DNA of 64,000 nucleotides from the IMG/VR virus record IMGVR_UViG_3300020577_007420, positions 12,380 to 76,379 of that record; one strand, given 5' to 3'. The notes beneath the pieces are model-generated. The model saw only the letters and a program-made list of their open reading frames with translations. It was not told the origin of the DNA and ran no database searches. Shown piece after piece: positions 23,141-42,937 of this stretch; within the stretch, counting starts at the first letter, position 1; each line of letters opens with the position of its first letter. Origin of the DNA: a virus. Lineage: Duplodnaviria > Caudoviricetes. Position numbers and translations under genes: made by a program.

Positions 23141-26100
23141 ATGCAGAAAGGAAAGAAGTTTTTGAGTGATTTAAAGTTATATTCCGACTATTTTAAATGG
23201 AATGAAGAATTAGAGAGATACGAGAACTGGAACGAGGCTTGTGAGTCTATTATAGATGGTCATAGGAGAAAGTATCTAGGTCTGGATATCGAGAAATACC
23301 TTAATGAAGCTGAGAAAGGTATCAAAGAAATGCTGGTATTAGCCAGCCAGAGAAACCTACAGTATAGATATCCTCAAATTATGAGAAATAATGAGAGAAT
23401 GTATAACTGTTTTTCTGGTGATACTAGAGTTATTACACAATGTGGAGTTAAAACATTTGATGAATTATCAAAAGAACCAGCTGGTAATGAGATTAAAGTT
23501 TGGACACATAAAGGAAGGTGGATGAATGCTAATCTAGGTTACTACGGAAAACAAAAATTGCAGAGAGTAACTATAGCTTATGGTAATAATAGACAAGAAA
23601 TAAGAGTAACTCCTAACCATAGATGGCTATTGTCTGATAATACAGAAACCACCTCCTTAAAAGTTGGAGATAAACTATTGAAAGTTAATGATATATTTAA
23701 TTTTGACTTTGATACGGCCTCTCCTTTTCAAAAGTTATATTGGTGTTATGGTTATGTATATGGAGATGGAACAAAAGTAAAAAATGATGGAAAATATACA
23801 CATAGTATGGTAAGATTGTGTGGAGAACAAGTAAAATTTGCTAGTAGATTTGAAGAAATGGGATTTTCCTCATCGTCTTCATTATCTATTGATGGAGATT
23901 TAATATTTTATACAGGAAAATACCTAAAGACATTACCTTCTTTGAATGAAAACAACGATTTACTTCAGGCATTTATATGCGGATATCTTGATGCAGACGC
24001 TACAAAGAATAAAAGCAAAAGTAAAAAAGCTTATGATTATATACAATGCTCAGATATAGAAGGGATTGAGTTTCTCAGAAGGGCACTACCTTTATGTGGA
24101 TTTTTTATCTTAAAAGAAGATGACTTAACTGGTCAAGAAACAAATTTTGGAGTAAGACCTTATACTATTAAGTTTTCTATAACGAATACTTTTAATGGAA
24201 AAAATCCGAACATAGAAGTAGTCGATATTCAAGAAGATGTGATAGATGATGTTTACTGTTTTATGGTGGATGAAGATAAATCTTTTACTCTATCTGGAGG
24301 TATAGTTACTGGTAATTGTGTGGGTGTATTATTTGATAAGAACGATTACTTCCAGAAGTGTTTTCATGTACTCCTGAGTGGATGTGGATTGGATTTTTCT
24401 ATTAGGAGAATGTTTATAGATAAACTGTCTCCCATCTACAGAAGAACTCTTGGTACTAAGACGTTCGTAATAGATGATAGTATAGAGGGATGGTCTGATG
24501 CACTTGGAGTATTAATGAGTAGCTATCTTGGTGATAATCAACCATTTCCAGAATATGCAGGATATGAGATTAAGTTTGATTATTCTCTTATCCGTCCTAA
24601 AGGTTCCTATATTTCTGGTGGGTTTAAGGCTCCCGGACATGAAGGACTGAAGCAGAGTCTTGAGAGAATTGAGAGCCTTCTTGAGAAATGGATTACTAAT
24701 GAGGGTAGCGTAATCAGGCCCATCTTAGTATATGATATTATCATGCATGCAGCTAATGCTGTATTGAGTGGTGGTGTTAGAAGAAGTGCATGCAGTGTAC
24801 TTATAGATGAGGATGATGAGGAGATGATTTACGCAAAGATTGGAAACTGGAGAGTTGAGAATCCTCAGCGTGCCAGAAGTAATAACGCTGTAGGTTTAAT
24901 CAGAAGAGAGTTTTCATATGATAAGTTAAAGGAAATCATTGACTTAAATCAGGGAGATAACGATATATCCTTCATATTTGTATTTGATGAATATGAGGTA
25001 AGTAATCCTTGTAGAGAGATAACTTTCCGTCCAGTATTGGAGGACGGCAGAAGTGGCTTCCAAATGTGTAATCTAACCGAGATAAATGCCTCTAAGTGCA
25101 CAACAGAACAGGAGTTCTATAGAGCATGTAGAGTTGGTGCTATTTTGGGTACCTTACAGGCAGGATATACAGATTTCCCATATCTAGGAAGAGATACCGA
25201 AGAGATTGTTAGAAGAGAGGCTCTGCTTGGTGTGTCTATTACAGGATGGATGAATCAGCCATATCTCTTTGATGCTGAGATACTTAGAACTGGTGCACAC
25301 ATTGTTGTAGGAACAAATAAGGAAGTAGCTGCAGCTATAGGTATAAATCCTGCAGCCCGTACAACAACTGTTAAACCTTCTGGTAATGCATCTGTGGTAC
25401 TAGGTACAGCTAGTGGTATCCATCCTGAGCACAGTGAGCAGTATTTCAGAATAATGCAGCTAAATAAGGAGAGTGATACGGCTAAATATCTTGAGGAAAA
25501 TATGCCATTCCTACTTGAGGAAAGTGTATGGTCAGCTACAAACAGTGACTACGTTGTATTTGTGCCCATAGTTAATCCTAAGACTGGTCTCTTCAAGAAA
25601 GATATGAAGGGAGTTAAACATCTAGAGTTAATTAAGCTGGTACAGGAAAACTGGGTCAATGCTGGTACAAATGTAGAGGCATGTCTCAAACCTTGGCTAA
25701 GACATTCTGTATCATGTACAGTAATCATTGATAATCAGGATGAAATAACTAAGTACATTTATGATAATCAGGATTCCTTTAAGGCAGTTTCCTTCCTCTC
25801 AGATTATGGTGATAAGGACTTTAACCAAGCTCCCTTTACATCTGTTCTGACTATGGATGAGATTGTTAAGGAGTATGGAGATGGTGCACTATTGGCCTCA
25901 GGATTGATTGTAGATGGATTGCACGTATTTGACCAAAACCTGTGGGAAGCCTGTGACTTAGTATTAGATACTGATAAGAAGATTAAAATTACGGGCACAA
26001 GACAAGAGGTCTGGCTGAAGGGTGACTGGATTAAGAGGGCTAAGAAGTTTGCTAAGAATTACTTTAAGGGTGACTTAAGAAAACTTGTATACTGTCTCAA

Positions 26101-26257
26101 GGATATTCATCTCTTTCATAAGTGGAAAACTATTAATAGACAGATGAAAGACGTTGATTTCCAAGAGATTCTGAGTATGCCAACTTATAAGGAAGTTAGT
26201 GAATATTCTAGCATGGCTTGCTCTGGACAAGGAAGTTGTGAGATTGTAAGAATATAA
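23141..26257 (+). CDS. nrdJ: class II (B12-dependent) ribonucleotide reductase with one intein; 735 aa after splicing
   Basis: YN-C, SGGVRRSA, NPCREI, CNLTEIN, TTVKPSGNAS, C-terminal CSGQGSC; no adjacent beta subunit in the window. Confidence 0.88.
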   Translation: MQKGKKFLSDLKLYSDYFKWNEELERYENWNEACESIIDGHRRKYLGLDIEKYLNEAEKGIKEMLVLASQRNLQYRYPQIMRNNERMYNCFSGDTRVITQCGVKTFDELSKEPAGNEIKVWTHKGRWMNANLGYYGKQKLQRVTIAYGNNRQEIRVTPNHRWLLSDNTETTSLKVGDKLLKVNDIFNFDFDTASPFQKLYWCYGYVYGDGTKVKNDGKYTHSMVRLCGEQVKFASRFEEMGFSSSSSLSIDGDLIFYTGKYLKTLPSLNENNDLLQAFICGYLDADATKNKSKSKKAYDYIQCSDIEGIEFLRRALPLCGFFILKEDDLTGQETNFGVRPYTIKFSITNTFNGKNPNIEVVDIQEDVIDDVYCFMVDEDKSFTLSGGIVTGNCVGVLFDKNDYFQKCFHVLLSGCGLDFSIRRMFIDKLSPIYRRTLGTKTFVIDDSIEGWSDALGVLMSSYLGDNQPFPEYAGYEIKFDYSLIRPKGSYISGGFKAPGHEGLKQSLERIESLLEKWITNEGSVIRPILVYDIIMHAANAVLSGGVRRSACSVLIDEDDEEMIYAKIGNWRVENPQRARSNNAVGLIRREFSYDKLKEIIDLNQGDNDISFIFVFDEYEVSNPCREITFRPVLEDGRSGFQMCNLTEINASKCTTEQEFYRACRVGAILGTLQAGYTDFPYLGRDTEEIVRREALLGVSITGWMNQPYLFDAEILRTGAHIVVGTNKEVAAAIGINPAARTTTVKPSGNASVVLGTASGIHPEHSEQYFRIMQLNKESDTAKYLEENMPFLLEESVWSATNSDYVVFVPIVNPKTGLFKKDMKGVKHLELIKLVQENWVNAGTNVEACLKPWLRHSVSCTVIIDNQDEITKYIYDNQDSFKAVSFLSDYGDKDFNQAPFTSVLTMDEIVKEYGDGALLASGLIVDGLHVFDQNLWEACDLVLDTDKKIKITGTRQEVWLKGDWIKRAKKFAKNYFKGDLRKLVYCLKDIHLFHKWKTINRQMKDVDFQEILSMPTYKEVSEYSSMACSGQGSCEIVRI
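23408..24316 (+). mobile_element. intein (303 aa) with LAGLIDADG endonuclease
   Basis: Block A CFSGDTRV; VTPNHRW; YGYVYGDG and CGYLDADA; block F/G DVYCFMVDEDKSFTLSGGIVTGN followed by Cys+1. Confidence 0.92.
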
Positions 26258-30259: not shown

Positions 30260-30497
30260 ACATTTTGTTGAGAGGCTTGAGCAAAGAGGTTTGGGATTAG
30301 AATGTATTCCAACAATGGTAAGAGTCACAAAAGATAATGTGCACTCTGCCAAAACAGATAATGGAAAGGAGTTGAGAAGTGTTGTGGTGAGACTTAAATA
30401 TAGCAGTACCAGATACATTTTTCTCTGCTTCAATCCATTTGACGGGAGCCTAAAAACCCTCTGGTTTAGGGACAAAAACAAAAAGGGGAGCCAATAG
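30183..30497 (+). CDS. small protein with TKHFVERLEQRG motif (possible BECR/RNase-like fold)
   Basis: 104 aa; last gene of the + strand arm. Confidence 0.5.
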   Translation: MDLTRTQLLKGEYIYPKDLIYLKPTKHFVERLEQRGLGLECIPTMVRVTKDNVHSAKTDNGKELRSVVVRLKYSSTRYIFLCFNPFDGSLKTLWFRDKNKKGSQ

Positions 30498-30513
30498 CTC
30501 CCCTTCTTTTTTT
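30481..30513. terminator. bidirectional terminator at the convergence of the two genome arms
   Basis: A tract - GGGGAGC-CAATA-GCTCCCC - T tract; coding strand flips here. Confidence 0.85.
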
Positions 30514-30574
30514 CCCCACAACTTCCGATTAAGGAGTTGTTGTAGTGGTAGTTGTTGATGAGGTTGATGTGGTA

Positions 30575-30698
30575 GTAGTTGTTTCTACAATCTCTGTGAT
30601 ATCTACCCAAACAGTACCGTTGTAGTGGTAGTTGTTGAGGTAGTAGTTGTAGTTGTTTCTACAATCTCTGTGATATCTACCCAAGCAGTACCGTTGTA
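30575..30698. repeat. 50-nt direct repeat (30575-30624 and 30649-30698), 49/50 identical, 74 nt apart
   Basis: GTAGTTGTTTCTACAATCTCTGTGATATCTACCCAA(A/G)CAGTACCGTTGTA occurs twice. Confidence 0.9.
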
Positions 30699-30941
30699 CT
30701 TCTCCATTCTCTTTAGAGACTCGTTCCATCTTACTGGATAGGTAATATCAGCAGCCTCTTCACAGCAATCGTCGTAAAACGGTACGTGAAGTTTGTTAAG
30801 ATATTCCCAGAACATCTTTCTGAAACCAAAAAAACCTTTTGTCCAACCTCTTTTGTTTCTATCAGAGGTATTAAACTCTCTGATTAGACCTTTGTCTAGA
30901 CCTTTGTCTTTCATAATTATAGCATGCATTTGTATCGCCAA
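30603..30941 (-). CDS. small protein with C-terminal Thr run (3' end duplicated out of frame)
   Basis: 112 aa; ...KYNGTAWVDITEIVETTTTTTSTTTTTTVLFG. Confidence 0.65.
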   Translation of the reverse strand: MAIQMHAIIMKDKGLDKGLIREFNTSDRNKRGWTKGFFGFRKMFWEYLNKLHVPFYDDCCEEAADITYPVRWNESLKRMEKYNGTAWVDITEIVETTTTTTSTTTTTTVLFG

Positions 30942-31346: not shown

Positions 31347-31898
31347 TTACGGAATTATACTTTCGTATTTAATAAGTATTTGAGCTATGGCACGGGCTAA
31401 TTCCTTCTTTCTACTATTATACTTGGCTAAATCATCCTCATTAGAGATGAATGCCAATTCAAGAAGACATACTAATCCATCTTCCTTCATTAGAGCAAGA
31501 CGTTTGTGACGTGTGTCAGCTTCTGTTTTTACACCTCTATTTTTAATACCCAAGATGGATGATGTGGTATCAACCAGTTCTTTGGCAAAAGCTTTGTCTA
31601 AACGGTCAGCATCTATCTCTATAAGAGAAGTAGAACCTGTAGCCGTTGATGGACCAGCATCGAAGTGAAATTCTAATACTACAGAACCGTTACCTGTTTG
31701 AATACGGTTTACGTACTGTTGCAGGGTTTCAGTATCAATATCCTTCTTATGAGGAGCTCCTAATATTGTAAGCTCGTGGCTTACTAAATCTCTAAATTCA
31801 ATAGTCAAATCACCCTCTTTAACCCCATTTTGGGAGATTGCCCCGGGGTCAGGATTTACCGGATGTTTACTATGATGTCCTGCTGATATAAATAACAT
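31347..31898 (-). CDS. endolysin, N-acetylmuramoyl-L-alanine amidase (Amidase_3)
   Basis: ISAGH, EGDLT, LEFHFDA, LLELAFISN zinc/catalytic motifs. Confidence 0.88.
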   Translation of the reverse strand: MLFISAGHHSKHPVNPDPGAISQNGVKEGDLTIEFRDLVSHELTILGAPHKKDIDTETLQQYVNRIQTGNGSVVLEFHFDAGPSTATGSTSLIEIDADRLDKAFAKELVDTTSSILGIKNRGVKTEADTRHKRLALMKEDGLVCLLELAFISNEDDLAKYNSRKKELARAIAQILIKYESIIP

Positions 31899-32205: not shown

Positions 32206-32493
32206 TTATTCTATCAGCTTTGCCAGCTTTTCCTGTAAGTGCTCAATTTCTTGTCTAAGTCTATCATTTTCAGACCTTAATTCATTTACTAAAATCCTCA
32301 GTTCATCAACCTCTCTTTTAAGGTCTTCTGCCAGATTTCTCCAGATAGCAACAGCTTTTTCTGTTGCGTCTAGCTCACTAAATTGAGCCTGTGCAGCAGT
32401 AACTCTTGTTTCTGCGTCCTGTTTTTTCTTCCCAAGAAAATAGCCTACTACCATGGTGGCAATGCTGACTGCCCCACTAACGATTAGTTCCAT
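32206..32493 (-). CDS. membrane-anchored coiled-coil protein (holin/lysis accessory)
   Basis: N-terminal TM followed by a heptad repeat. Confidence 0.55.
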   Translation of the reverse strand: MELIVSGAVSIATMVVGYFLGKKKQDAETRVTAAQAQFSELDATEKAVAIWRNLAEDLKREVDELRILVNELRSENDRLRQEIEHLQEKLAKLIE

Positions 32494-32567: not shown

Positions 32568-33563
32568 TTATTTTACCTCTTTCATTGCCTCGACATAGAA
32601 CCAAGATGCACTATCCTTCTTTACAGCATGATTTTTTCCCAGTGGAGATTTATCTATCCAGTCTCCTTTATAAAATAATCCCGGATGTCCTTTTGTGGCC
32701 CCAGCATTATGAAAGATGGGTTTCTTGTGGTACGTTTCTGCAGAATCTGTAGCCCAGCTAAAATCAAGCTCTGGTGTTACATCTGTAATCTTATTGCGTG
32801 ACCATAGAGCCATATTAACGGCCCACATATCTGCACACCAGCTTTGGAATCCTTCAGCTTCAGACTTAAAGTATTTTTTATTTATGGAGTTGGGAACACT
32901 AAACGAGAAGGCTTTCCTAATCTCAACACATTGTCTTTCTACATCTCTCCAGAAATCTCCATCTATCCCTTTTAGTATATATTGTGCTCCACCTGTCCTT
33001 CCTGTATAGGATTTTATTATATCTACTGTTACGTTTCCTATCTTAGCCAAGGTCTCTATTGCCTCATGTTCTGGGATATTTCCCTGTTGCTCTTTTCTTC
33101 TTAGGTAATCGTAATCAAGATAGTGAGAGGTATCTGATTGCCAGTTTATTGCACCTTCTGCAAGTGATTGAAAATCAGGAAGATAGTTAAATATGATGTC
33201 ACTATCGTGGTAAAATATGACCTCATTTTTAAGATGAGGATACATATCAAAGTGCTTAGCTAGTATCTGAGGTCTAAGCTGTGGAATATATAATCCCAAA
33301 TCTACTCCCGTATCCTTATAGAAGGAAAAACTTACCTCTGGATATTTTCTAGCTAAAGCTACCCACTCATCAATCTTTATTTTCACAGGAGAGTGTCCCT
33401 GCTTTTGGAGCATTTCATTATCTGGATACCAGACTAGTACATGCATGAGATGGGATATCTTATGCTTTCTAAAGTTTACTATATTTACCTCCACTTGCCA
33501 TATAAAATATAAGTCATGAGGACATGCTTGTATAAATTTTATATTAGATATATTTCCAGTCAT
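32568..33563 (-). CDS. GT-A fold glycosyltransferase, peptide O-glycosyltransferase (HPAT/SGT)-like
   Basis: YHDSDIIF (DxD), GGAQY, WCADMWAVNMALW, IFHNAG; start ATG 33563 preferred over TTG 33590. Confidence 0.6.
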   Translation of the reverse strand: MTGNISNIKFIQACPHDLYFIWQVEVNIVNFRKHKISHLMHVLVWYPDNEMLQKQGHSPVKIKIDEWVALARKYPEVSFSFYKDTGVDLGLYIPQLRPQILAKHFDMYPHLKNEVIFYHDSDIIFNYLPDFQSLAEGAINWQSDTSHYLDYDYLRRKEQQGNIPEHEAIETLAKIGNVTVDIIKSYTGRTGGAQYILKGIDGDFWRDVERQCVEIRKAFSFSVPNSINKKYFKSEAEGFQSWCADMWAVNMALWSRNKITDVTPELDFSWATDSAETYHKKPIFHNAGATKGHPGLFYKGDWIDKSPLGKNHAVKKDSASWFYVEAMKEVK

Positions 33564-34125
33564 ATCCTCCTGCAAAGAATTTTTCTCCATTCTTGTTGAT
33601 TTTATTTGTTAAGGTAAGATGAATAGTTGAACGAGGTATTTTTAAAAATTTAGAAGCCTCAGATAATGTATCAAAAATTAATTCTTCACCTGTTAATATA
33701 TTTATTGCTTTTGTTTTCTTTGAAATACTTTTATATGAACCTTTTAATATTTTTGTTTGTTTTGTTTTAAGTATTTCCTCTTTTGTTCTTTTAAACCCTT
33801 TTAAAGAATTAGAAGTTTTTATTCTACTTTCTATTGAAGGAATATAACCAGTACTACCATCTCCACCATCTGTTAAATTTACTAATGTACCTTTTTTTAA
33901 ATTTCTTCTCCCATAAAAAGATATTAGATATTTCTCTATAACACAAGCTTCTTCCCATATTAAGTCTTTATGAGTTATTTCTACATCATAATCATATTTA
34001 TTTACTATAAATTTCCACCATCTATTTCTACTATCTTTACTATATGCTCTTTTTTCAAATTCTCCTATTCCAACATAGAATACTTCATTAGAATTTTTCT
34101 TTTTATGTATATATACTATTGCCAT
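33544..34125 (-). CDS. free-standing GIY-YIG-like homing endonuclease
   Basis: IVYIH...FYVGIG...R; EKYLI..YGR; LVNLTDGGDG; C-terminal FDTLSEASKFL HTH; very AT-rich. Confidence 0.75.
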   Translation of the reverse strand: MAIVYIHKKKNSNEVFYVGIGEFEKRAYSKDSRNRWWKFIVNKYDYDVEITHKDLIWEEACVIEKYLISFYGRRNLKKGTLVNLTDGGDGSTGYIPSIESRIKTSNSLKGFKRTKEEILKTKQTKILKGSYKSISKKTKAINILTGEELIFDTLSEASKFLKIPRSTIHLTLTNKINKNGEKFFAGGYDWKYI

Positions 34126-34844
34126 TATACTTTATAATAATGTTCTGCCCAAGATTTTGAGACTGGAGTTATTATTCCATCTCCAATATCCTTAGAATAA
34201 CTTGCATAATTATTAAAATTTTCAGGATTATGGGGATTACCAGATGTCTTAAATGTTGGGATTTCCTGACTCCAGTCACATATATAAGTAGGTACTCCAT
34301 CTGGGTCTACGAATATCTGCTTATCATATATAAGAGGATTTAACCATTTATGATGCTGGGCTACACTCTCATCTCCGAATCCATGCTCCTTTATATGCTT
34401 TGCATCTACAAAGATAGATGGTTCAAGTGTGTTCTCAACTAAAGTAAGTCTATTTCCAGTTTGCTTATAGTAGGACCTTTGTGGCTTATATGCCTTTTTT
34501 CCTCCCTTTATATACCCTTTTACTCCTTCTTCTACATGATTTGGGAGAAATATATCGTCATCATCCATAAAGTTTACGATATCTACATCATCTGGAATAA
34601 ACCTAATGGCATCATTATAAATCTCACCCAACGTCCTATATGCTCTTCTTTCCTTTAAATGTGTATGATTGTTTATTAAAATAAACTTATTTGCAGGAAG
34701 ATTAGTATTAAGTCTCTGTTGCTGAGGAGCATTATTATATATTAGATGCACATAGTTCTCATAAGTCTGCTCTAATACAAACCTAACAAGTCTTTCTAGC
34801 TGCTTGTGTCTATTCTTTGTTGCTGTGATGAGACATACTTTCAT
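34125..34844 (-). CDS. glycosyltransferase family 2
   Basis: VCLITATKNR...EQTYEN; FMDDDDIFLPNHV. Confidence 0.82.
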   Translation of the reverse strand: MKVCLITATKNRHKQLERLVRFVLEQTYENYVHLIYNNAPQQQRLNTNLPANKFILINNHTHLKERRAYRTLGEIYNDAIRFIPDDVDIVNFMDDDDIFLPNHVEEGVKGYIKGGKKAYKPQRSYYKQTGNRLTLVENTLEPSIFVDAKHIKEHGFGDESVAQHHKWLNPLIYDKQIFVDPDGVPTYICDWSQEIPTFKTSGNPHNPENFNNYASYSKDIGDGIITPVSKSWAEHYYKV

Positions 34845-35266
34845 TGTATAGTAATAATATTTGAAGTTAAATCAATCTTCATTCCTACCGATGCCATATG
34901 GTCAATACCTAAAATACCTCCTATTGGTAAATCTTTTACAATATACTCAATATCAGTAACATATATATCTCCATCCATCTTATGCTTGCCAAGTTTTATT
35001 GTAGATTGGTCAACTAACATAATCTTCTTTGCTCCACCATAACCTGTTATCTCCTTTCCCCAAGATAACTTCTTGATATTCAATTTATTAACCACATCAT
35101 CATCTAAGATAGTTATAGCTCCTCCTGTATCTAATATCATTTCAATAGGAACACCATCTATAGTTACAACTATTGTTGGTAAATGATATTGTCTATTTAT
35201 CTGATGAGTATAGGTATCAGATTTACAGGCTACAAATAGTAGCAATATTAGTAGTAGTTTTTTCAT
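34841..35266 (-). CDS. retropepsin-like aspartic protease with lipoprotein signal peptide
   Basis: MKKLLLILLLFVAC lipobox; MILDTGG; GILGID. Confidence 0.8.
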   Translation of the reverse strand: MKKLLLILLLFVACKSDTYTHQINRQYHLPTIVVTIDGVPIEMILDTGGAITILDDDVVNKLNIKKLSWGKEITGYGGAKKIMLVDQSTIKLGKHKMDGDIYVTDIEYIVKDLPIGGILGIDHMASVGMKIDLTSNIITIQ

Positions 35267-36969
35267 TATAAGCAGTTACCATCGTTTACAGTAAGGGTTA
35301 AAGGAGATGGACCAGTCATATCTACATTTGTCCAAGTTGCATTAGGTGAAGGGTCACCTGCTCCAACTGGTTCACATGTCAGAGGTGTTCCATATGTATC
35401 AACAAGTGTAATATTCTGACCACCTATTGCATTTGACCAAACCACATATACATCAACTAATCCATCATTTGCTAAAGTATGGTTACTATCTGGGTCACCG
35501 GGACCAGCATAGCTTCCCGGAACAGTAACTCCATCCAATTCAAATGTAGTGACAGTAACATCAAGAGATGTATTAGATACCACTATATTCTCATTTATAC
35601 CAGATGTTGTAGTTGTAGTCGTAGAAGTTGTTGCAGGTTCTTGTGTAGTTGTAGTCGTAGTCGATGTTGTTGCCTCAGTTGTTGTTGTTGTTGTTGAGGT
35701 AGTAGCATCTGGTCCACAAGGCCCCATATTTGTTATTACAGGGTCACCACATGTAACATTAAGTGTTCCAGTTCTTGCACAAATTAGTGTAACACTTACT
35801 ACAAAAATAGAGAATGGTGCTCCACTTTCACAATCTTCCCACTCTATACATGAACCACCATTGCCCTGAACTTGATAAGATGTACAATCAAGCGGAGCTT
35901 GTGTTGTTGTAGTTGAGGTAGAGGTTGTCGTAGATGTTGAAGTAGTTGTAGTTGTGGTAGTTGTTGTAGGCTCCTCAGTTGTGGTTGTAGTTGTTGAGGA
36001 TGTAGTTGTAGTGGTTGTACCAGCACAAGGATATCCACCTACTCCATTATCAGTAACAGTAACTCCCGGAATCACAGTTATATTAAAATGCTCAGGACAG
36101 CTACACAAATAGTATGTAGAACCTGCACCTAATGTAACATAAGTTATTACATCTGAACCACATGTCTTAAAGTTGAATGAGATAGGAACAGATGTCTCTA
36201 TAAAGTAACCATGGCATTCACATGGAGCAGCAGTAGTAGTTGTAGTGGTAGATGAAGTTGTAGTCGTAGATGTGGATGTAGAAGTAGACGTGGTAGATGT
36301 CGTAGTGGTTGTTGTCGTATCTGGACAAAAAGAACCACAATCTGCAGAGTAAACTCCCGTATTTATTGTAACAAATGGTAAACTATAAGTTGTTAAGCCA
36401 ACTATCTTATAGTAAGAAGTAGGAACTGTTACCCCTTGATAATAATAAAGTGGGCTATATATAAATCCAGAAGGTACCTGAATAACTACGTTCTTTGCAA
36501 CTAATTGACAATCACCATCTAAGCAAGAATACTCATCCGCATAGTAATATGTAAATTCAGGAACAGTTGTAGTAGTTGTTGTAGAGGTCGTTGTAGTTGT
36601 TCCACAACAGTCACATTTTGCATTTATAATTGCCTGTAGCTTCTCTTCGAAGGTTAAAGCTTGCCACGCTTCCTGACTCATCAGGCACTTGGGGTCAACG
36701 TCATCCAGCACATCGTTTAATGCAACGGTTACATCGACAGTTGAGGTAGTTAAAAATCCATCTTCATCTCTATACTCTATAATGAGATTGTTTCCCTGAA
36801 AACGGAAACCTGACATGAAGGTAAGTGTCTCACAATCTTTAACCCATTTACATAAATCGGGTTGTTGTTCAAATATGAGACATAATGCCTTAACTATACC
36901 AACTCTCCATTCGAATGGTATATCGCATAGATAGGCATGCAAGTCTTTATGGCAATTACAAATTTTCAT
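35266..36969 (-). CDS. mucin-like structural protein: Cys-rich modules separated by four Thr/Ser runs
   Basis: 567 aa; four long Thr/Ser tracts encoded by mixed ACT/ACA/ACC/ACG codons. Confidence 0.8.
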   Translation of the reverse strand: MKICNCHKDLHAYLCDIPFEWRVGIVKALCLIFEQQPDLCKWVKDCETLTFMSGFRFQGNNLIIEYRDEDGFLTTSTVDVTVALNDVLDDVDPKCLMSQEAWQALTFEEKLQAIINAKCDCCGTTTTTSTTTTTTVPEFTYYYADEYSCLDGDCQLVAKNVVIQVPSGFIYSPLYYYQGVTVPTSYYKIVGLTTYSLPFVTINTGVYSADCGSFCPDTTTTTTTSTTSTSTSTSTTTTSSTTTTTTAAPCECHGYFIETSVPISFNFKTCGSDVITYVTLGAGSTYYLCSCPEHFNITVIPGVTVTDNGVGGYPCAGTTTTTTSSTTTTTTEEPTTTTTTTTTSTSTTTSTSTTTTQAPLDCTSYQVQGNGGSCIEWEDCESGAPFSIFVVSVTLICARTGTLNVTCGDPVITNMGPCGPDATTSTTTTTTEATTSTTTTTTQEPATTSTTTTTTSGINENIVVSNTSLDVTVTTFELDGVTVPGSYAGPGDPDSNHTLANDGLVDVYVVWSNAIGGQNITLVDTYGTPLTCEPVGAGDPSPNATWTNVDMTGPSPLTLTVNDGNCL

Positions 36970-37364
36970 GAAGGATGTGCTATTGTTGTAGTTGTTGTAG
37001 AAGTCGAACAGCAGTCACAGTGACTATCTATAAGCAATTGAATCTGCTGAGATAAAGTCAGGTTACTCCAAGTTGTTTCATCTGTTAAACAGTTGGGGTC
37101 CAAATCAAGGGACTGTTTTATTATCTCAGATAATGAGAAACAACGATTTACTGGCACACTATCTTCTCCAGTATATGTAATACATACTGTCTCACCCGAT
37201 ATGGTGAAGTTCGATAGAGTGGTAAGCGTCTCACAATCCTTAACAATATTACAGTCAGGTTCTACTTTCTCCTCTTTTATCTCACAGAGTAACTGAACCA
37301 GCTGATTTTTCCACTTCGAGGGAATATCACTTAGATATTCTTCTATTTGTTGCTTGAATGTCAT
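36966..37364 (-). CDS. short paralog of the N-terminal domain of the mucin-like protein
   Basis: Shared DIP.W, VKDCETLT, DP.CL...W..LT...Q......CDCC + Thr run. Confidence 0.8.
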   Translation of the reverse strand: MTFKQQIEEYLSDIPSKWKNQLVQLLCEIKEEKVEPDCNIVKDCETLTTLSNFTISGETVCITYTGEDSVPVNRCFSLSEIIKQSLDLDPNCLTDETTWSNLTLSQQIQLLIDSHCDCCSTSTTTTTIAHPS

Positions 37365-37471
37365 TTTATTATTATTTTAGTCCTAATTTTTGTTTTAATA
37401 TTTCTGCATCATCCTGAATATTATTACAGCCATAAGGATTTGGACCTTATGTTTTTTAAATGGTTTCTCTC

Positions 37472-37891
37472 TCATCTAATAAAAATTGTATATAATGATG
37501 TAAATAATATAATTAATGTCCACTTTATGACCATTTGTTCTTTTGGAGAAAATTGTTGCAGGAAGTTATCAGATTTGGCATCATCTGCATCATCACTTCC
37601 ATTATATCTCCAAGAGTATCCTCTCATCTTGTTTAGCCATCCATCAAAGAATTCCCACCACCAAGCTGCCATCATAGCAGCAGTAATTAATATTTTTATC
37701 ATTACTGTTGGTATAGATTCATCATCAACTGGTAGCATAAAACATGCAAAAGACGGAAGAAGGGCAAGTATTCTAAGTACCTGCCCTCTTCCGTGAGATA
37801 CTCTGCCTGTAGGAATTCTTTTATAGTCTGATTTTACATCAAAATACATAACAGTCACAAAAGTCAATATGCCGAGTATTACTCCTAACAT
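37472..37891 (-). CDS. multi-TM membrane protein
   Basis: 139 aa; 3-4 hydrophobic segments; WWWEFFDG. Confidence 0.7.
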   Translation of the reverse strand: MLGVILGILTFVTVMYFDVKSDYKRIPTGRVSHGRGQVLRILALLPSFACFMLPVDDESIPTVMIKILITAAMMAAWWWEFFDGWLNKMRGYSWRYNGSDDADDAKSDNFLQQFSPKEQMVIKWTLIILFTSLYTIFIR

Positions 37892-38322
37892 TATTTAGGG
37901 TTTTGTAATTTAATAATATCTTCTGCTGACATTCTTGTTGAATCAATCTTGGCAGGAACAGGACGACCCTTACCTGCAGTCACACCATCATTTACTTTAT
38001 CTGTACAAGCTTTGCCCCAAGCTATTGCTATAAATATTATGATTGGTAAAAATATGTTTAGTGAAACTCCATATCCACCAACACTCTTTATATACTTAAC
38101 TATAAAATACATGCCAACAGCAGATAAGGCTGTCAATCCAATTGCCCATACCCAAAAATCTCCAGTTTGCTGCTGCAGAGCTTGGAGTCCTGTAATAGCA
38201 CCTTCATCATCTTCCTTTGTGAAGAGAAATGTATAAATGGCAATACCTACCATTATTACAATGGCTGATAATACTCCAAACATGAATTTGTTTTCCTTAA
38301 TCCAATTTACTAAATTTTTCAT
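37891..38322 (-). CDS. three-TM membrane protein
   Basis: 143 aa; hydrophobic helices. Confidence 0.7.
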   Translation of the reverse strand: MKNLVNWIKENKFMFGVLSAIVIMVGIAIYTFLFTKEDDEGAITGLQALQQQTGDFWVWAIGLTALSAVGMYFIVKYIKSVGGYGVSLNIFLPIIIFIAIAWGKACTDKVNDGVTAGKGRPVPAKIDSTRMSAEDIIKLQNPK

Positions 38323-38334
38323 ATATTTTCAATT

Positions 38335-40116
38335 TTAATTAATGATTTGTTTTAAACTATCTATCACTCTTGATGAGGATATGAATCTTGAACACTCAAA
38401 CTGTCTAGGTGTTCCTTTGTGGTCTGGACACCACCACCAATCCTGTGATTCTAACTTATGTCTGTTAAAGCAACCTCGGCACTTTCCTACTGGTGCATCT
38501 ATTCTTATACAGGATTGCATTTCCGTATAGCTCTCGGAGAATCCTGAGACTAAAATAACAGGAATATTGCATGCCCAAGCTACCCAACTTAATCCGGTAC
38601 CTACTCCTACATATGCCTTACATGCACAGATTTCTTTTATTAGTGTCTCCAGATTTCCTTCTGGAAGCTGTACAGCATTTTGTGGATTACTGTTTCCATT
38701 ATGCCCGTCAGCTTCTTTACTTAATAGAAGAGGTGTATATCCTATGTTATTTATATAATCTACTACATCTTGCCATCCTGTTGGATTATTCCAGTACTTT
38801 GCTTGAGTAGTGGAATGCATCCCAATTCCTATAGTATTTGTTTTCTGCACATCTGGTAAATCCAGCATTGGCTTTATCTCTATATAAGGAAGCCCAAGTA
38901 TATCACTTGCAGTCTTCTGCATAGGTTGGGTACGTGGGTCAAGCGGATGCTTATTGAAATCAATTCTATCATCCTTATAGTACCAGCTTATATTATATTG
39001 AGCCTCAAGGTCATATAGAGGTTGTCCTATTTCTGAAAACTGAATGTCAGGATAATGTTTCCTAAAGAGACTATTGTGCCTTGTTGTACAAATCATATGA
39101 CACTTATGTCTCTTTCTGAATTCCTCTATATATGGGAACCAAGCCACCGTGTCACCTAAACTATTCGACTCTATCCTAACATGAATCCTCTTTCCCTCAA
39201 AGTCAGTTTTGTATTCTGCACGATACTCTCCCTTCTGTATACGAATCTTCCATTTTACGAAATACTCAGGATTGGCTCTTGCCCATTCACCTGTTGCGAT
39301 GGATGATGAGTAAACTATCTCATCTGTGTCTTCATTTATGAACTGGATATCATACTTACCAAGTCCAGCCGTCATATCAACTCTACATCCGTTGACATAA
39401 CTTATTGTAAATGAAGGCTCTATATCAAATTTTGAGGATGGTAATATAAAGAATATGATTTCTCTATAGTAGTCTAGCTTTGATTCTAGCTCTTCTCTAG
39501 TCATCATTCTCCCATCTACAGAGGTAAGTATTACATCCATATTGTAATCTTCAAGCATCTGCATCATATACATTATATATGCTTTATGCTTTCTGCTATG
39601 AATATGTAATTCTCCAGTTATCTTTCTTACATTTTCCTTTATCCAAGGCATGTTCTCTCTTGTGAAGATATCGTACTCTCCTCCCTCGCAATCTACTTTT
39701 AAGAAATCTATCCTTTGGATATTGTTTTTCTCTATAAATGACTTAAATGTCATTGTTGAGATTTCTATATCTCCATTACCAATCTCATTTGCGTGTCCAT
39801 CAGATGTAATAACTGATGTACCATCTTTTCCAGATATAGCAGAGCCGATTACTACTAGTTTTTCATCATTAAGCTTTTTTAAATCCTCGATGAACATGGG
39901 GTCTGGTTCTAAAGCATACACCTTAGATGCTTTCTTTATGGCCAGCTTTGATAATATTCCAACATGAGCACCCACATCTACGACTACATCTCCATCTTCT
40001 ATTTCAAAGAACTTTTCGTAAATACCTTCTTCTTCTATTTCTCTCTTGGCAACATCAACCATCAGTTGATAGTTTCCCTCAACTGTGTCTCTCTTCTTGA
40101 GATTTTTATAAATCAT
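38335..40116 (-). CDS. FkbM-family methyltransferase fused to Aah/TibC-type (autotransporter) O-heptosyltransferase
   Basis: N-terminus: VDVGAHVG, ALEPD, FLKVDCEGGE. C-terminus: SLGDTVAWFPY, AKYWNNPTGW, GTGLSWVAWA...VILVSGFS, CRGCFN...CP...FEC Cys set. Confidence 0.82.
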   Translation of the reverse strand: MIYKNLKKRDTVEGNYQLMVDVAKREIEEEGIYEKFFEIEDGDVVVDVGAHVGILSKLAIKKASKVYALEPDPMFIEDLKKLNDEKLVVIGSAISGKDGTSVITSDGHANEIGNGDIEISTMTFKSFIEKNNIQRIDFLKVDCEGGEYDIFTRENMPWIKENVRKITGELHIHSRKHKAYIMYMMQMLEDYNMDVILTSVDGRMMTREELESKLDYYREIIFFILPSSKFDIEPSFTISYVNGCRVDMTAGLGKYDIQFINEDTDEIVYSSSIATGEWARANPEYFVKWKIRIQKGEYRAEYKTDFEGKRIHVRIESNSLGDTVAWFPYIEEFRKRHKCHMICTTRHNSLFRKHYPDIQFSEIGQPLYDLEAQYNISWYYKDDRIDFNKHPLDPRTQPMQKTASDILGLPYIEIKPMLDLPDVQKTNTIGIGMHSTTQAKYWNNPTGWQDVVDYINNIGYTPLLLSKEADGHNGNSNPQNAVQLPEGNLETLIKEICACKAYVGVGTGLSWVAWACNIPVILVSGFSESYTEMQSCIRIDAPVGKCRGCFNRHKLESQDWWWCPDHKGTPRQFECSRFISSSRVIDSLKQIIN

Positions 40117-40125
40117 ATGTTGGTT

Positions 40126-41013
40126 TTATATATAAGTAACTAATGGATTATTGTCATAATCGCTTCCATATGTTAGAAACTTTCTTATCTTGCATGGTAA
40201 TCCATAAGATAATGCTTCTTTTATACAGATTGGGTTTAGTTCGAATGTGCTTGGGAAATAAAACTCATCACAAGCCTGATAAAATAAATCTACATCGTCC
40301 TTTTCTCCCCAAACTACACAGTTAGCTGGCTTATTCTGCATAAGAGGTCCCCAGTAATTCTCAAAGTTAGGTGCCTGATTCCCAACAAAATGATAGGTAT
40401 TTTGAGGATTTACTCTAGCAATCTCAAATAATTCTCCTTGATTCTTGCCCGGAGTAAATAATCCCACATTTAGGATATGTTTTCTATTAATATCCATTCC
40501 CAGTTCTAGCTTCTTCTGTATCTTCTGTTCTGGTGTAACTTCCTTACTTTCAATAGGAAATTCCCATATATCACAGGGAACAGTAGGCAACTGGGTTAAG
40601 AATAGATTCTTTTGCCAGTTATTTACTGCAACTAGCTTATCTGGGTATCTATCAAATGACTGCCCGTATGTTAAAGAGCTATGAGATGTAACTACTACAA
40701 ACCAAGTTCTATCCTGTTTGTATAGATACTCTAAGTTTGGCTGGTCTAGGAATTTCTCTGGAAGTTCCTGACAATGAATGACTTCTGGACTTATTTGCTC
40801 TATTTTGCTCTGTAGAAGTGCTTGATTTCCATATAGAGAATCAAACGTACACATAGCTTGTAGTCTGTTTCTCTGGACTACATACTGCTCTCCATAAAAG
40901 TCTACTTCCAGTACAAATATCTCGTTTCCCTCAAGAAAATCCTGAACCTGTCTTACGACATATTGGGGCATTCCTCCTGTCGAACAATGTGGTAATAGAT
41001 ATAATATTCTCAT
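40126..41013 (-). CDS. GT-B glycosyltransferase (GT4/Glycos_transf_1-like)
   Basis: RILYLLPHCSTGGMPQ; NVGLFTPGKNQ; FPSTFELNPICIKEALSYGLP. Confidence 0.82.
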   Translation of the reverse strand: MRILYLLPHCSTGGMPQYVVRQVQDFLEGNEIFVLEVDFYGEQYVVQRNRLQAMCTFDSLYGNQALLQSKIEQISPEVIHCQELPEKFLDQPNLEYLYKQDRTWFVVVTSHSSLTYGQSFDRYPDKLVAVNNWQKNLFLTQLPTVPCDIWEFPIESKEVTPEQKIQKKLELGMDINRKHILNVGLFTPGKNQGELFEIARVNPQNTYHFVGNQAPNFENYWGPLMQNKPANCVVWGEKDDVDLFYQACDEFYFPSTFELNPICIKEALSYGLPCKIRKFLTYGSDYDNNPLVTYI

Positions 41014-41017
41014 TACG

Positions 41018-41049
41018 CAAATATATGAAATTATATATTATTCTCCAAA
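41018..41049 (-). promoter_or_regulatory. perfect Bacteroidota promoter heading the glycosyltransferase cassette
   Basis: Minus strand TTTG(41049-46)-N20-TATATTTG(41025-18), 4 nt before ATG 41013. Confidence 0.75.
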
Positions 41050-41337
41050 TTAATAAAATGTTGGGCCACTCCTATAGTAATGTGCACCAGTTGGGGAGAA
41101 ATAATCATCCTGACAGTACTTAATTATTACCATTCCATCACCACCCGGAGCACCGCCATTTCCAAATTGATAAAAGTCACCACCGCCACCGTATGCGATG
41201 AATGTTGTTGCAAATGATGTGTTTCCACCAACAGCACCAGAACCAAGATTTGTTCTTGCTGTTGTTGTATTTGTTAAATCAGACAAATTATTTGTCTTGA
41301 TGAGTTCTCTTGAATTGATTGAGTTATTTGTTGCCAT
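41050..41337 (-). CDS. short tail-fibre-like fragment with Gly-rich C-terminus
   Basis: MATNNSIN, NNLSDLTNTTTARTNLG, GGDGMVIIKY. Confidence 0.55.
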   Translation of the reverse strand: MATNNSINSRELIKTNNLSDLTNTTTARTNLGSGAVGGNTSFATTFIAYGGGGDFYQFGNGGAPGGDGMVIIKYCQDDYFSPTGAHYYRSGPTFY

Positions 41338-41338
41338 A

Positions 41339-42937
41339 TTATGTTATTGTTATATTACCTTGACTACTTAATACCATCCACTCTGTATCAGCCACGATAC
41401 AAAGTAATTCAACTGCATCATTTGTATCTGTCGAATCAAGTCTTCCGCCAACACCAGTAGTTGTGTCTACATTTCCAAAATGAATTATTTCAGATGCGTT
41501 TTGTGCAATTCTCCAACCACCTGCACCCTTACCAGCAACACGCACAACAGAACCAACAGCAGCTGTATCTGGTAGTGTTACTGTGACGAGTGAAGCATTG
41601 TTGCATATATATCCATTGTTTACAGAAGCAGCCTGACTTGTTCCAGTAACCTCATTCCAAGTAAAACCACCAGCAGACATTGACTCTATTTTATCTCGTA
41701 TAGCATTTTTGGTTGGAACTTCTAATGAACCATTCCAGTTTGTTGCGTCATACGCTTCATCTGCTACTTCTAGGTCTGTATAAGCACTGTCATCAGCAAG
41801 TCTAGCTTGTAGAATTGTCGAGCTTCTTTTAATTGCAGGAAATGAAGACGTTGTCCCATGAAATTGTATCAAACCAGATGTATTTATTTGTAAATAACCA
41901 GCAGTATTCCCAGAACCAAGCATTAGAGGAACACCTGCAGATGGATATATACTCCATGTTGAACCAAGTTTTAAATAACCAGTATTTCCACCATAAATAA
42001 CATTAAAGTCTGTTGATACTCCTGCATTTGGGTTAATGGTTAAGCCCTGAGAACCAGAAAATAGTCTAATCACACCACCATGACTACCAGCACCATTGTT
42101 CGTTGTTATATATATTCCAGTAGTATTACCAGTTCTTGATGTATCATTATATATTTCAGATGCAGTTCCATAATCTCTTATATCAAAAGTTGGTGTTCTA
42201 ACTTTTCCAGAACCACCCAATGTAATATCTGTTCCATCAAAAGTAAGGTTAGCACTTGTTTGTAATGTATTTGAATCAGAACCATAGGGGATACGATTAG
42301 ATACCATTGTTCCGTCTATCTTTCCGTCTATTTGTGTTTGGATTCCAGATGTAACACCTTTAACGTAAGCTACTTCTGCAAGTGAAGGATACGTTGCGGT
42401 ATCTAGGTATGAAATTGTATCAACATCTGTCCAGTAAGTTAGTCGGTTTGAAACACCAGAACCATCAATAGTTCCACCTCCAGAAGTACCTGATGTACCT
42501 GTTGACCCCGATGTACCACTTGTTCCATTAGAACCATTAGCACCACTTGTACCAGAAGTACCGTTGGTTCCAGAGGTTCCGCTTACACCACTTGTACCAG
42601 ATGTACCAGAAGCTCCAGAAGAACCTGTGGCTCCAGAAGTACCAGAAGTGCCTGATAATCCGCTAGTTCCAGAGGTGCCTGAGGCACCTGAGGAACCAGT
42701 AGCACCACTTGTCCCGGATGTACCGGATTGACCTGAGGTACCTGATGTTCCAGATGTTCCAGCTACTCCACTTCCCTGAGAGCCAACCTTTTCACATATT
42801 TTATTTAAAATAGAAGACAAAGGCTCCCCTTTTGTAGCGGGAACGCACAAATCAGAACAGTCATTGACAACTCCAGAAAGAGGTATCTTTGACTTGTTTA
42901 CGAGAATATATTTCTTTTGGTCATTTGTTTCTGCCAT
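41339..42937 (-). CDS. collagen-like tail fibre / virion decoration protein
   Basis: 31 consecutive Gly-X-Y triplets; DEAYDATNWNGSLEVPTKNAIRDKI; C-terminal TVTLP...GGWRIAQNA domain. Confidence 0.75.
   Translation of the reverse strand: MAETNDQKKYILVNKSKIPLSGVVNDCSDLCVPATKGEPLSSILNKICEKVGSQGSGVAGTSGTSGTSGQSGTSGTSGATGSSGASGTSGTSGLSGTSGTSGATGSSGASGTSGTSGVSGTSGTNGTSGTSGANGSNGTSGTSGSTGTSGTSGGGTIDGSGVSNRLTYWTDVDTISYLDTATYPSLAEVAYVKGVTSGIQTQIDGKIDGTMVSNRIPYGSDSNTLQTSANLTFDGTDITLGGSGKVRTPTFDIRDYGTASEIYNDTSRTGNTTGIYITTNNGAGSHGGVIRLFSGSQGLTINPNAGVSTDFNVIYGGNTGYLKLGSTWSIYPSAGVPLMLGSGNTAGYLQINTSGLIQFHGTTSSFPAIKRSSTILQARLADDSAYTDLEVADEAYDATNWNGSLEVPTKNAIRDKIESMSAGGFTWNEVTGTSQAASVNNGYICNNASLVTVTLPDTAAVGSVVRVAGKGAGGWRIAQNASEIIHFGNVDTTTGVGGRLDSTDTNDAVELLCIVADTEWMVLSSQGNITIT
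42482..42760 (-). repeat. (Gly-Thr-Ser)n collagen-like repeat, 31 triplets, with a 24-aa higher-order unit
   Basis: G[QLV]S-GTS-GTS-GAT-GSS-GAS-GTS-GTS repeated; no Pro; codons diversified. Confidence 0.9.

Follow-up and report, generated by a model that had tools for sequence, protein, structure and literature searches.

A 64,000-nt window of an uncultivated tailed-phage genome (bases 12380–76379 of the linear 76,379-bp IMG/VR record IMGVR_UViG_3300020577_007420; CheckV completeness ~60%) carries on its minus strand, at positions 32,568–42,937, an island in which four predicted glycosyltransferases (GTs) are interleaved with Ser/Thr-rich repeat proteins. Sequence comparison makes it likely, in our judgement, that two modules, each directed by its own type of repeat tag, O-glycosylate the phage's own repeat proteins in the cytoplasm. 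In one module, an enzyme of the TibC type, belonging to a phage clade, would add the first sugar on Ser/Thr of a proline-free Gly-Thr-Ser collagen-like fibre, a GT4-like enzyme would lengthen the glycan and an FkbM domain fused to the TibC-type domain would O-methylate a sugar. In the other, a GT-A-fold enzyme of family phrog_4417 would start O-glycosylation at the poly-Thr stretches of three proteins of 567, 132 and 112 aa, and the adjoining GT2 enzyme would probably lengthen the poly-Thr glycan. By analogy with cultured phages, the proteins so modified probably lie exposed on the virion, and the donor sugars would be supplied by the host. From the observed gene content, family membership, conserved catalytic residues and two gene-neighbourhood associations we infer the enzyme–substrate pairs, the order of steps, sugar methylation, a place in the virion for this phage's repeat proteins and any function, be it in shielding, stability or adhesion.

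A sequence-only reading had proposed a single island for self-glycosylation of virion fibres. The four transferases and the repeat proteins are indeed present on the minus strand where it placed them, and its core inference is backed by co-occurrence across phage genomes and by cultured phages, although two separable modules emerge rather than one shared pathway. The co-occurrence of GTs with Ser/Thr-repeat genes, which that reading had set beforehand as a check, was found for both enzyme families.

The TibC-type enzyme and its collagen-like neighbour

The first module is built around a fusion of an FkbM methyltransferase (approximately residues 40–200) with a TibC/Aah-family protein O-glycosyltransferase (approximately residues 237–590). 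The second domain aligns with the TibC structure 4rap over 349 residues (237–585; E 2.6e-53) and scores above the curated equivalog threshold of NCBIfam TIGR04414 (257.3 bits vs cut-off 200), which upholds the fusion as first described. Residue roles were taken from the TibC structure paper, according to which Asp110 is the catalytic base, Thr226, Lys230 and Trp305 make phosphate and sugar contacts, Arg286 touches adenine N1 (the basis of ADP-sugar use) and position 300 sets heptose stereoselectivity (PMC4358343). Asp110, Thr226, Lys230 and Trp305 are kept in the fusion as D322, T436, K440 and W511, as is the four-Cys iron finger (C546, C549, C563 and C575, corresponding to TibC Cys339, 342, 358 and 370). 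The equivalents of Asp110 and Trp305 are invariant across 81 phage TibC homologs. Because its catalytic residues are conserved, the TibC-type enzyme is very probably active. TibC Arg286 and Pro300 correspond to L492 and G506; at the Arg286 position, 53 of the 81 phage homologs have Arg and 28, including the closest relatives of the window's sequence, have Val, Thr, Leu or Ile. The accompanying GT4-like protein matches Pfam Glycos_transf_1 (PF00534) marginally (27.0 bits vs cut-off 26.4), with longer homologs from other phages reaching 41–53 bits, and belongs to the glycosyltransferase family phrog_2170.

The putative acceptor of this module is a collagen-like protein (PF01391, 48 bits) with 32 uninterrupted, proline-free Gly-X-Y triplets at residues 57–152. 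Thr occupies X in 19 of them and Ser occupies Y in 25; exact GTS accounts for only 18, so that the earlier notation (GTS)31 is approximate. The C-terminal part of the protein is non-collagen. The protein matches tail-fibre families in PHROG, and these matches are driven by the repeat.

At least 88 IMG/VR phage contigs carry a TibC-like gene, and 80 loci were used for comparison. A Ser/Thr collagen gene lies within the fetched flank in 35 of the 80, nearly always on the same strand and with X = Thr and Y = Ser dominating; many of the loci without one are on contigs that end short on the side in question. When the loci were dereplicated by single linkage at 70% identity, 14 of the resulting 23 TibC clusters were collagen-positive within 10 kb. 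By comparison, none of 17 endolysin-anchored control loci has a Ser/Thr collagen gene; this control is small, and the TibC and GT-A sets also served as controls for each other. Among GT-A-anchored loci, the presence of TibC is associated with that of Ser/Thr collagen ([[54,8],[7,11]], odds ratio 10.6, p = 1e-4). A GT4-like gene is also found at 57 of the 80 phage TibC loci, where neighbouring open reading frames (ORFs) mix GT4, FkbM, TibC/GT9, GT25 and TylF-type methyltransferase domains in many orders, including fusions of the types GT4-FkbM, GT4-TibC, GT4-TibC-methyltransferase and FkbM-TibC.

Bacterial TibC homologs have a different neighbourhood. Only 1 of 52 bacterial TibC loci has a Ser/Thr collagen gene, whereas all four bacterial loci tested for it have a gene for an AIDA-repeat protein beside the TibC homolog, in one case with an autotransporter beta-domain; Pfam found no AIDA or autotransporter domain in the island proteins. 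Since the bacterial neighbours are AIDA-repeat proteins and the phage neighbours are collagen-like, adjacency marks the substrate in the known TibC branch and the phage branch has a different neighbour. Consistent with this division, all 80 phage sequences, including that of the window, form one clade together with three contigs from metagenome-assembled genomes in a FastTree phylogeny (support 1.0), with 47 other bacterial homologs outside it.

In searches of phage records, TibC was found in five records and GT4 in two, none of them from actinophages. In the cultured Microcystis phage Mel-JY01 (PP395634.1, 3065-8430), a 1226-aa GT4-TibC fusion is annotated only as 'methyltransferase FkbM'; it directly follows a 'structural protein' that is rich in Ser but not collagen-like, with a gene of cytidylyltransferase type 3 kb downstream.

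A GT-A family linked to poly-Thr proteins

The central enzyme of the second module is a 340-aa member of phrog_4417, a family annotated in PHROG as 'unknown function'; its real start is likely Met10, at 33563. An alignment-based AlphaFold model (pLDDT 91.2, pTM 0.89) has a GT-A fold, and a Foldseek search of the Protein Data Bank (PDB) with this model gave 258 matches at E <= 0.001, the top-ranked of which are all GT-A enzymes. They include WbbM (6u4b), the catalytic domain of UGGT, alpha-1,3-galactosyltransferase and glycogenin (E 7e-7 to 4e-5, TM 0.40–0.55). In 19 homologs the DxD motif (D129-x-D131) does not vary. No Pfam or NCBIfam family matches the protein above threshold. The label 'peptide-O-GT-like' (HPAT) given to it by the sequence-only reading is not supported: the match to PF23452 (HPAT/GT95) reaches 19.5 bits against a cut-off of 23.9 and covers 51 residues only, and the fold fits retaining GT-A families generally. 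The GT2 enzyme scores above its family cut-off (PF00535, 37.6 bits vs 23.3).

The proteins assigned to this module are rich in Thr. The mucin-like protein with Thr runs, its short paralog and the Thr-tailed protein near 30603, all listed by the sequence-only reading, proved real. The 567-aa protein consists of an N-terminal domain (N-domain) followed by Cys-rich domains parted by seven Thr/Ser runs; 28 of its residues are Cys and 130 are Thr, the latter drawing on all four Thr codons. Its first ~120 residues are common to the 132-aa protein and to genes at the same position in related phages; in the 132-aa protein the conserved N-domain spans ~118 aa and ends in C-x-C-C before a short Ser/Thr tail. 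A Thr/Ser run of 13 residues forms the end of the 112-aa protein. An AlphaFold model of the N-domain from a nine-sequence alignment had a pLDDT of 48.5 and was not used, and a protein-atlas look-up of the domain returned unnamed viral clusters only, at TM < 0.4. The 567-, 132- and 112-aa proteins match no structural family in Pfam, PHROG or NCBIfam, and PHROG and Pfam searches with the giant, small membrane and Thr-tailed proteins of the window gave nothing informative.

At least 284 IMG/VR stretches encode relatives of the 340-aa protein, and 80 loci were kept. A Thr-dominated run of at least 8 is present at 52 of these 80 GT-A loci, compared with none of the 80 TibC loci and none of the 17 endolysin controls. 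All 98 ORFs with such runs lie on the same strand as the GT-A gene, with a median gap of 209 bp and a lower quartile of 34 bp, and 9 of 11 dereplicated GT-A clusters have one within 1 kb. In a distant group of GT-A loci (L227–L298), the downstream gene typically encodes 60–96 aa, with an N-domain of ~47 residues ending in C-C followed by a Thr tail, and often occurs in two tandem copies.

The association extends to cultured phages. By tblastn, 77 phage records carry a GT-A homolog, among them phages of Lactobacillus, Enterococcus, Staphylococcus, Lactococcus, Clostridium and Chryseobacterium; Staphylococcus phage vB-SscS-F1 is one of the carriers. Poly-Thr lies beside the homolog in all seven cultured phages inspected. 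In phages of Gram-positive bacteria, the homolog sits inside the head and tail modules, beside capsid or tail proteins with poly-Thr tails. In Enterococcus phage phiFL1A, a Thr/Ser run of 23 residues closes gp50, the major tail protein, which is encoded directly upstream of the GT gene gp51; in Enterococcus phage VPE25 and one Staphylococcus phage, Thr runs likewise end the major tail proteins. In Lactobacillus phage iLp84, the C-termini of both the major capsid protein and the major tail protein consist of seven Thr and then Ser-Lys, and the GT is preceded by a poly-Thr protein of 125 aa. The same GT-A/poly-Thr pattern is seen with phiCTP1 gp18, in Semele and in Chryseobacterium phage MA9V-3. 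These poly-Thr tails on annotated major tail and capsid proteins of cultured phages are the chief ground for regarding the acceptors as virion proteins.

Paired cysteines directly precede the Thr run in two unrelated families, as C-x-C-C in the N-domain family of the window and as E-C-C in the 60–96-aa proteins. They could be part of a recognition signal; the tags on capsid and tail proteins of Gram-positive phages lack them.

Related phages and natural populations

Eight relatives of the window (L219–L226, IMG/VR contigs of 21–165 kb) have in common with it a giant protein, the N-domain family, GT2, GT-A, a small Thr-tailed protein and plus-strand genes, while the stretch between the giant protein and the lysis genes differs among them. 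Thr-run proteins lie beside the GT-A gene in seven of the eight, and homologs of the 112-aa protein with C-terminal Thr tails occur in L220 and L225. In L219, L223, L224 and L226, the GT-A gene is immediately preceded by a GT2 homolog; a pattern scan of IMG/VR gave no GT2 relatives, which were found only in loci fetched via the GT-A gene. TibC together with GT4 occurs among the relatives only in L225, with a Ser/Thr collagen protein upstream.

In two relatives, a collagen-like gene starts at or overlaps the GT-A stop (L224:10939-13731 and L226:10944-14036), and a second collagen-like gene of L224 (18694-20937) ends in Gly-Tyr-Thr-type triplets. Given this position, some collagen-like proteins may also be acceptors for the GT-A family.

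Among 50,697 phage records, megablast found nothing near-identical to the island. Wastewater, activated-sludge, digester and aquatic metagenomes of at least 11 studies contain 87–99% of sampled island words, and six RNA-library runs contain 19–49%. Three RNA libraries yielded contigs that span the island in part, which indicates presence and is no proof of transcription. One DNA run from activated sludge has 311 nt in place of 86 nt of the Gly-Thr-Ser repeat (42499-42586), which would lengthen the collagen repeat of that strain by ~75 residues. One wastewater RNA-library contig joins position 38377 to 42891, with 67 letters on the shorter side, and depth between the two points is mostly zero or near zero; this gives a hint, and only a hint, of a strain from which a single 4.5-kb cassette, comprising TibC, GT4, the 95-aa ORF and the collagen gene, is missing. 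Another RNA-library contig omits 256 nt (41040-41297), comprising most of the 95-aa ORF. Because its flank is divergent (14 differences in 218 nt), this omission is probably a strain variant rather than splicing.

Weighing the proposed mechanism

Several observations weigh against two modules of tag-directed self-glycosylation. The pairing of enzyme with substrate is drawn from gene neighbourhood, in counts that were dereplicated and not fully corrected for phylogeny. L223 has GT-A and GT2 and no Thr run within the 21 kb fetched. The pairs of enzyme and repeat are also not strictly exclusive, because L224 and L226 have large collagen-like genes directly after GT-A with no TibC within 10 kb. 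In the reverse direction, a TibC gene was found at 5–7 of 80 loci with Gly-Thr-Ser repeats, a lower bound given that the stored flanks are short and uneven; this reverse test is no evidence of independence. As the record is ~60% complete and its capsid and tail genes were not recognized, the virion location is drawn from other phages and from repeat-driven PHROG matches. Finally, with Leu in place of Arg286 and Gly in place of Pro300, the donor could be something other than ADP-heptose; heptose, the sugar implied by the sequence-only reading, is not supported, given the replacement of the adenine-contacting Arg.

A host-derived donor fits the gene content: that reading had noted an absence of sugar-nucleotide synthesis genes, and the three nucleotide-sugar families tested (NTP_transferase, Epimerase and CTP_transf_like) have no match anywhere in the 76-kb record, itself incomplete.

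The usual interpretation of GTs near tail-fibre genes, as in pelagimyophages (PMC7029224), is that they remodel host lipopolysaccharide (LPS), capsule or exopolysaccharide, for example to block superinfection, and here it would make the repeat genes just neighbouring fibre genes. GT2 and GT4 families act mostly in polysaccharide synthesis, the weak NCBIfam matches of the GT4-like protein are glycolipid enzymes and two small membrane proteins are encoded inside the island. Nevertheless, we regard this explanation as unlikely. The enzyme with the clearest assignment comes from a family whose known members are all protein O-glycosyltransferases (PMC4358343), and a role in host glycans does not predict that each enzyme family tracks its own repeat type. 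The GT-A homolog of Gram-positive phages resides in head and tail modules, beside capsid and tail proteins with poly-Thr tails. Moreover, flippase, GtrA-like and polymerase families were not detected, and none of the four transferases has a membrane-span-type hydrophobic stretch. Modification of phage DNA (hypermodified bases) against restriction is scarcely credible here: phage GTs of several folds are known to modify DNA, but the TibC family acts on proteins, the linkage to repeat proteins would be left unexplained, the genes lie in the late, lysis-proximal region and not with replication genes, and the incomplete 76-kb record has no gene for a thymidylate-synthase-like hydroxymethylase.

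The repeat proteins might instead be glycosylated without being part of the virion, as released or cell-associated decoys, matrix-binding factors or lysis-related factors. Their neighbours are lysis genes and a lipoprotein protease, the Thr-run proteins resemble no structural family, the N-domain model is uninformative and distant loci encode very small Thr-tailed proteins. This is quite unlikely in view of the poly-Thr tails on annotated major capsid and tail proteins of cultured phages; furthermore, none of the repeat proteins has a signal peptide, and the collagen-like protein resembles tail fibres in PHROG, albeit through its repeat. Even less is to be said for the repeats being unmodified flexible linkers, linked to the enzymes by shared late regulation or by travelling in a mobile, variable 'host-range' island. 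The region does vary among relatives and samples, it carries a homing-endonuclease-like gene, and linkage by itself is no proof of an enzyme–substrate relation. Yet the linkage is specific to repeat type across distant phage groups and host phyla, with gaps often of ~30–45 bp, the conserved catalytic residues imply active enzymes, and the bacterial TibC branch has its known substrate type as the adjacent gene, so that we hold this explanation to be very improbable. We therefore prefer glycosylation of the phage's own repeat proteins by two modules, as set out above.

Setting of the island and accompanying genes

The window has a GC content of ~35%, and its coding strand flips at ~30.5 kb, from plus-strand genes to a minus-strand late block. 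In the order of transcription, this block comprises three giant ORFs (>1272, 3173 and 2211 aa), the island, a spanin-like gene (Rz-like in PHROG), an amidase endolysin gene, two small genes and a hairpin. The second of the small genes encodes the 112-aa Thr-tailed protein and is the last of the operon; the hairpin and a T-run at ~30480–30525 resemble an intrinsic terminator. Since lysis genes adjoin it, the island belongs to the late region. Within it, transcription would run from the collagen-like gene through those for the 95-aa protein, GT4-like enzyme, FkbM-TibC fusion, two hydrophobic proteins, 132-aa protein, 567-aa protein, protease, GT2 and homing-endonuclease-like protein to the 340-aa enzyme (Table 1).

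Table 1. Annotated genes of the island and of the adjoining lysis region, with the evidence for each assignment
Feature	Position in window	Strand	Evidence
112-aa Thr-tailed protein	30603-30941	-	ORF; homologs in L220, L225
Amidase-type endolysin	31347-31898	-	PHROG endolysin E 7e-34
Spanin-like protein	32206-32493	-	Rz-like spanin E 3e-8 (PHROG)
GT-A-fold glycosyltransferase, phrog_4417, 340 aa	32568-33590	-	phrog_4417 E 1.6e-50; model
Homing-endonuclease-like gene	33544-34125	-	phrog_314 E 6e-12; weak NUMOD1
GT2-family glycosyltransferase, 239 aa, D-D-D-D motif	34125-34844	-	PF00535
Retropepsin-like aspartyl protease, 141 aa	34841-35266	-	Asp_protease_2 E 4e-11; lipoprotein-type signal L-F-V-A-C
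567-aa Thr-run protein	35266-36969	-	Sequence composition
132-aa protein, paralog of 567-aa N-terminus	36966-37364	-	Alignment with relatives L219-L225; tblastn
Two small hydrophobic proteins, 143 aa and 139 aa, probably membrane	37472-38322	-	No significant family
FkbM-TibC fusion	38335-40116	-	FkbM E 1e-12; PDB 4rap; TIGR04414
GT4-like (GT-B) glycosyltransferase, 295 aa	40126-41013	-	PF00534, phrog_2170
Gly-rich small protein, 95 aa	41050-41337	-	ORF only
Collagen-like fibre protein, 532 aa	41339-42937	-	Pfam Collagen; triplet count

Four of the interleaved genes went unmentioned in the sequence-only reading, namely those for the homing-endonuclease-like protein, the lipoprotein-type aspartyl protease and the two small membrane proteins. 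The homing-endonuclease-like gene separates GT2 from GT-A, which are adjacent or nearly so in relatives, and overlaps the annotated start of the GT-A ORF. The aspartyl protease, with its lipobox, lies mid-island, and such a gene is unusual among phage late genes. The 139-aa hydrophobic protein has a homolog in L219, and the 95-aa Gly-rich protein has no family match in Pfam, PHROG or NCBIfam searches. A 74-bp tandem duplication (30539-30698) spans the last ~25 codons of the 112-aa gene. Copy 1 encodes the Thr run, then V-L-F-G and a stop, whereas copy 2, in the -1 frame, would give the same motif and a Thr tail ending in T-P, as in relatives; the duplication is either a recent truncating event or a frameshifting substrate.

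The three giant proteins have zero PHROG or Pfam matches and almost none in the 50,697 phage records, the record itself being a fragment. The phage had been called crAss-like; no crAss-like hallmark gene was found in the ~60%-complete record. On the plus strand, a 1038-aa protein (23141-26257) is a class II ribonucleotide reductase whose counterparts in phage records are split into two or three pieces and lie beside homing endonucleases, a pattern that suggests an insertion (an intein or intron remnant) within the first ~390 residues of the protein.

Implications and comparison with known systems

On balance, we lean towards a broader conclusion, namely that phages widely sugar-coat their particles by modular, tag-directed systems. 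One branch of the TibC family would have been re-targeted from autotransporter beta-helices to proline-free Gly-Thr-Ser collagen, building methylated oligosaccharides with GT4 and FkbM, and an unnamed GT-A family would read poly-Thr tags on capsids, tail tubes and fibres in phages of Firmicutes, Bacteroidota and uncultured hosts. This wastewater phage would have both, its TibC-collagen cassette maybe as a presence/absence polymorphism. If so, sugar-coated virions would be common among phages of both Gram-positive and Gram-negative hosts, and the phages of Enterococcus, Lactobacillus and Staphylococcus that matter for therapy and dairy work would be among them. Simple, portable tags (poly-Thr and Gly-Thr-Ser) would direct glycosylation, with a possible use in engineering, and the TibC family would gain a second substrate class. 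The idea lends itself to a direct test in cultured phages in which GT-A lies beside capsid or tail proteins with poly-Thr tails.

Glycosylation of virions by phage-encoded enzymes is already known; the enzyme families, acceptor tags and host range described here differ. Freeman et al. reportedly found in 2023 that mycobacteriophages such as Che8 O-glycosylate their own capsid and tail proteins with phage-encoded glycosyltransferases, and glycosylation of mycobacteriophage virions is said to alter immune recognition. To our knowledge, mycobacteriophages are the only phages for which glycosylation of the particle by phage-encoded enzymes has been shown experimentally. Phages with the GT-A homolog resemble them in that their major capsid and tail proteins have short, acceptor-like tails at the C-terminus. 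By contrast, the enzymes are of other families, no Mycobacterium phage is among the 77 records with a GT-A homolog (tblastn), the phages infect Firmicutes or Bacteroidota or are uncultured phages of aquatic or wastewater habitats, and the putative acceptors are poly-Thr tracts and collagen-like repeats. Limited searches of the literature found no description of TibC-collagen or GT-A-poly-Thr pairings in phages.

The 340-aa model shares its fold and DxD motif with retaining GT-A enzymes, namely the GT8-like WbbM (6u4b), UGGT (GT24), glycogenin and alpha-1,3-galactosyltransferase (GT6). Of these, UGGT has glycoproteins as substrates, and glycogenin is likewise directed at protein. The 340-aa protein is just 10–14% identical to these enzymes, and its preferred acceptor is inferred from gene neighbourhood alone. 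The collagen-like protein recalls BclA of the Bacillus anthracis exosporium, a collagen-like protein with Gly-Pro-Thr repeats that is O-glycosylated on Thr. Both have a collagen-like repeat with a hydroxy-amino acid in most triplets, which in BclA is a scaffold for dense O-glycosylation on the surface 'nap'. However, BclA repeats contain proline, its enzymes are not of the TibC type and it is a bacterial spore protein, not a phage fibre.

The closest parallel to the first module is the bacterial autotransporter heptosyltransferase (BAHT) family of E. coli, represented by the pairs TibC-TibA and Aah-AIDA-I (4rap/4rb4; PMC4358343). The phage enzyme is homologous, with catalytic residues and iron finger kept, and in both systems a cytoplasmic enzyme is encoded beside a repetitive, Ser/Thr-bearing protein, in the phage its presumed multi-site acceptor. 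In the phage, however, this neighbour is a proline-free Gly-Thr-Ser collagen-like protein, whereas that of the BAHT enzymes is an AIDA-repeat beta-helix. Furthermore, the phage enzyme is fused to FkbM and paired with a GT4-like enzyme, its donor may differ in view of Leu and Gly at the Arg286 and Pro300 positions, and the phage sequences form a clade of their own.

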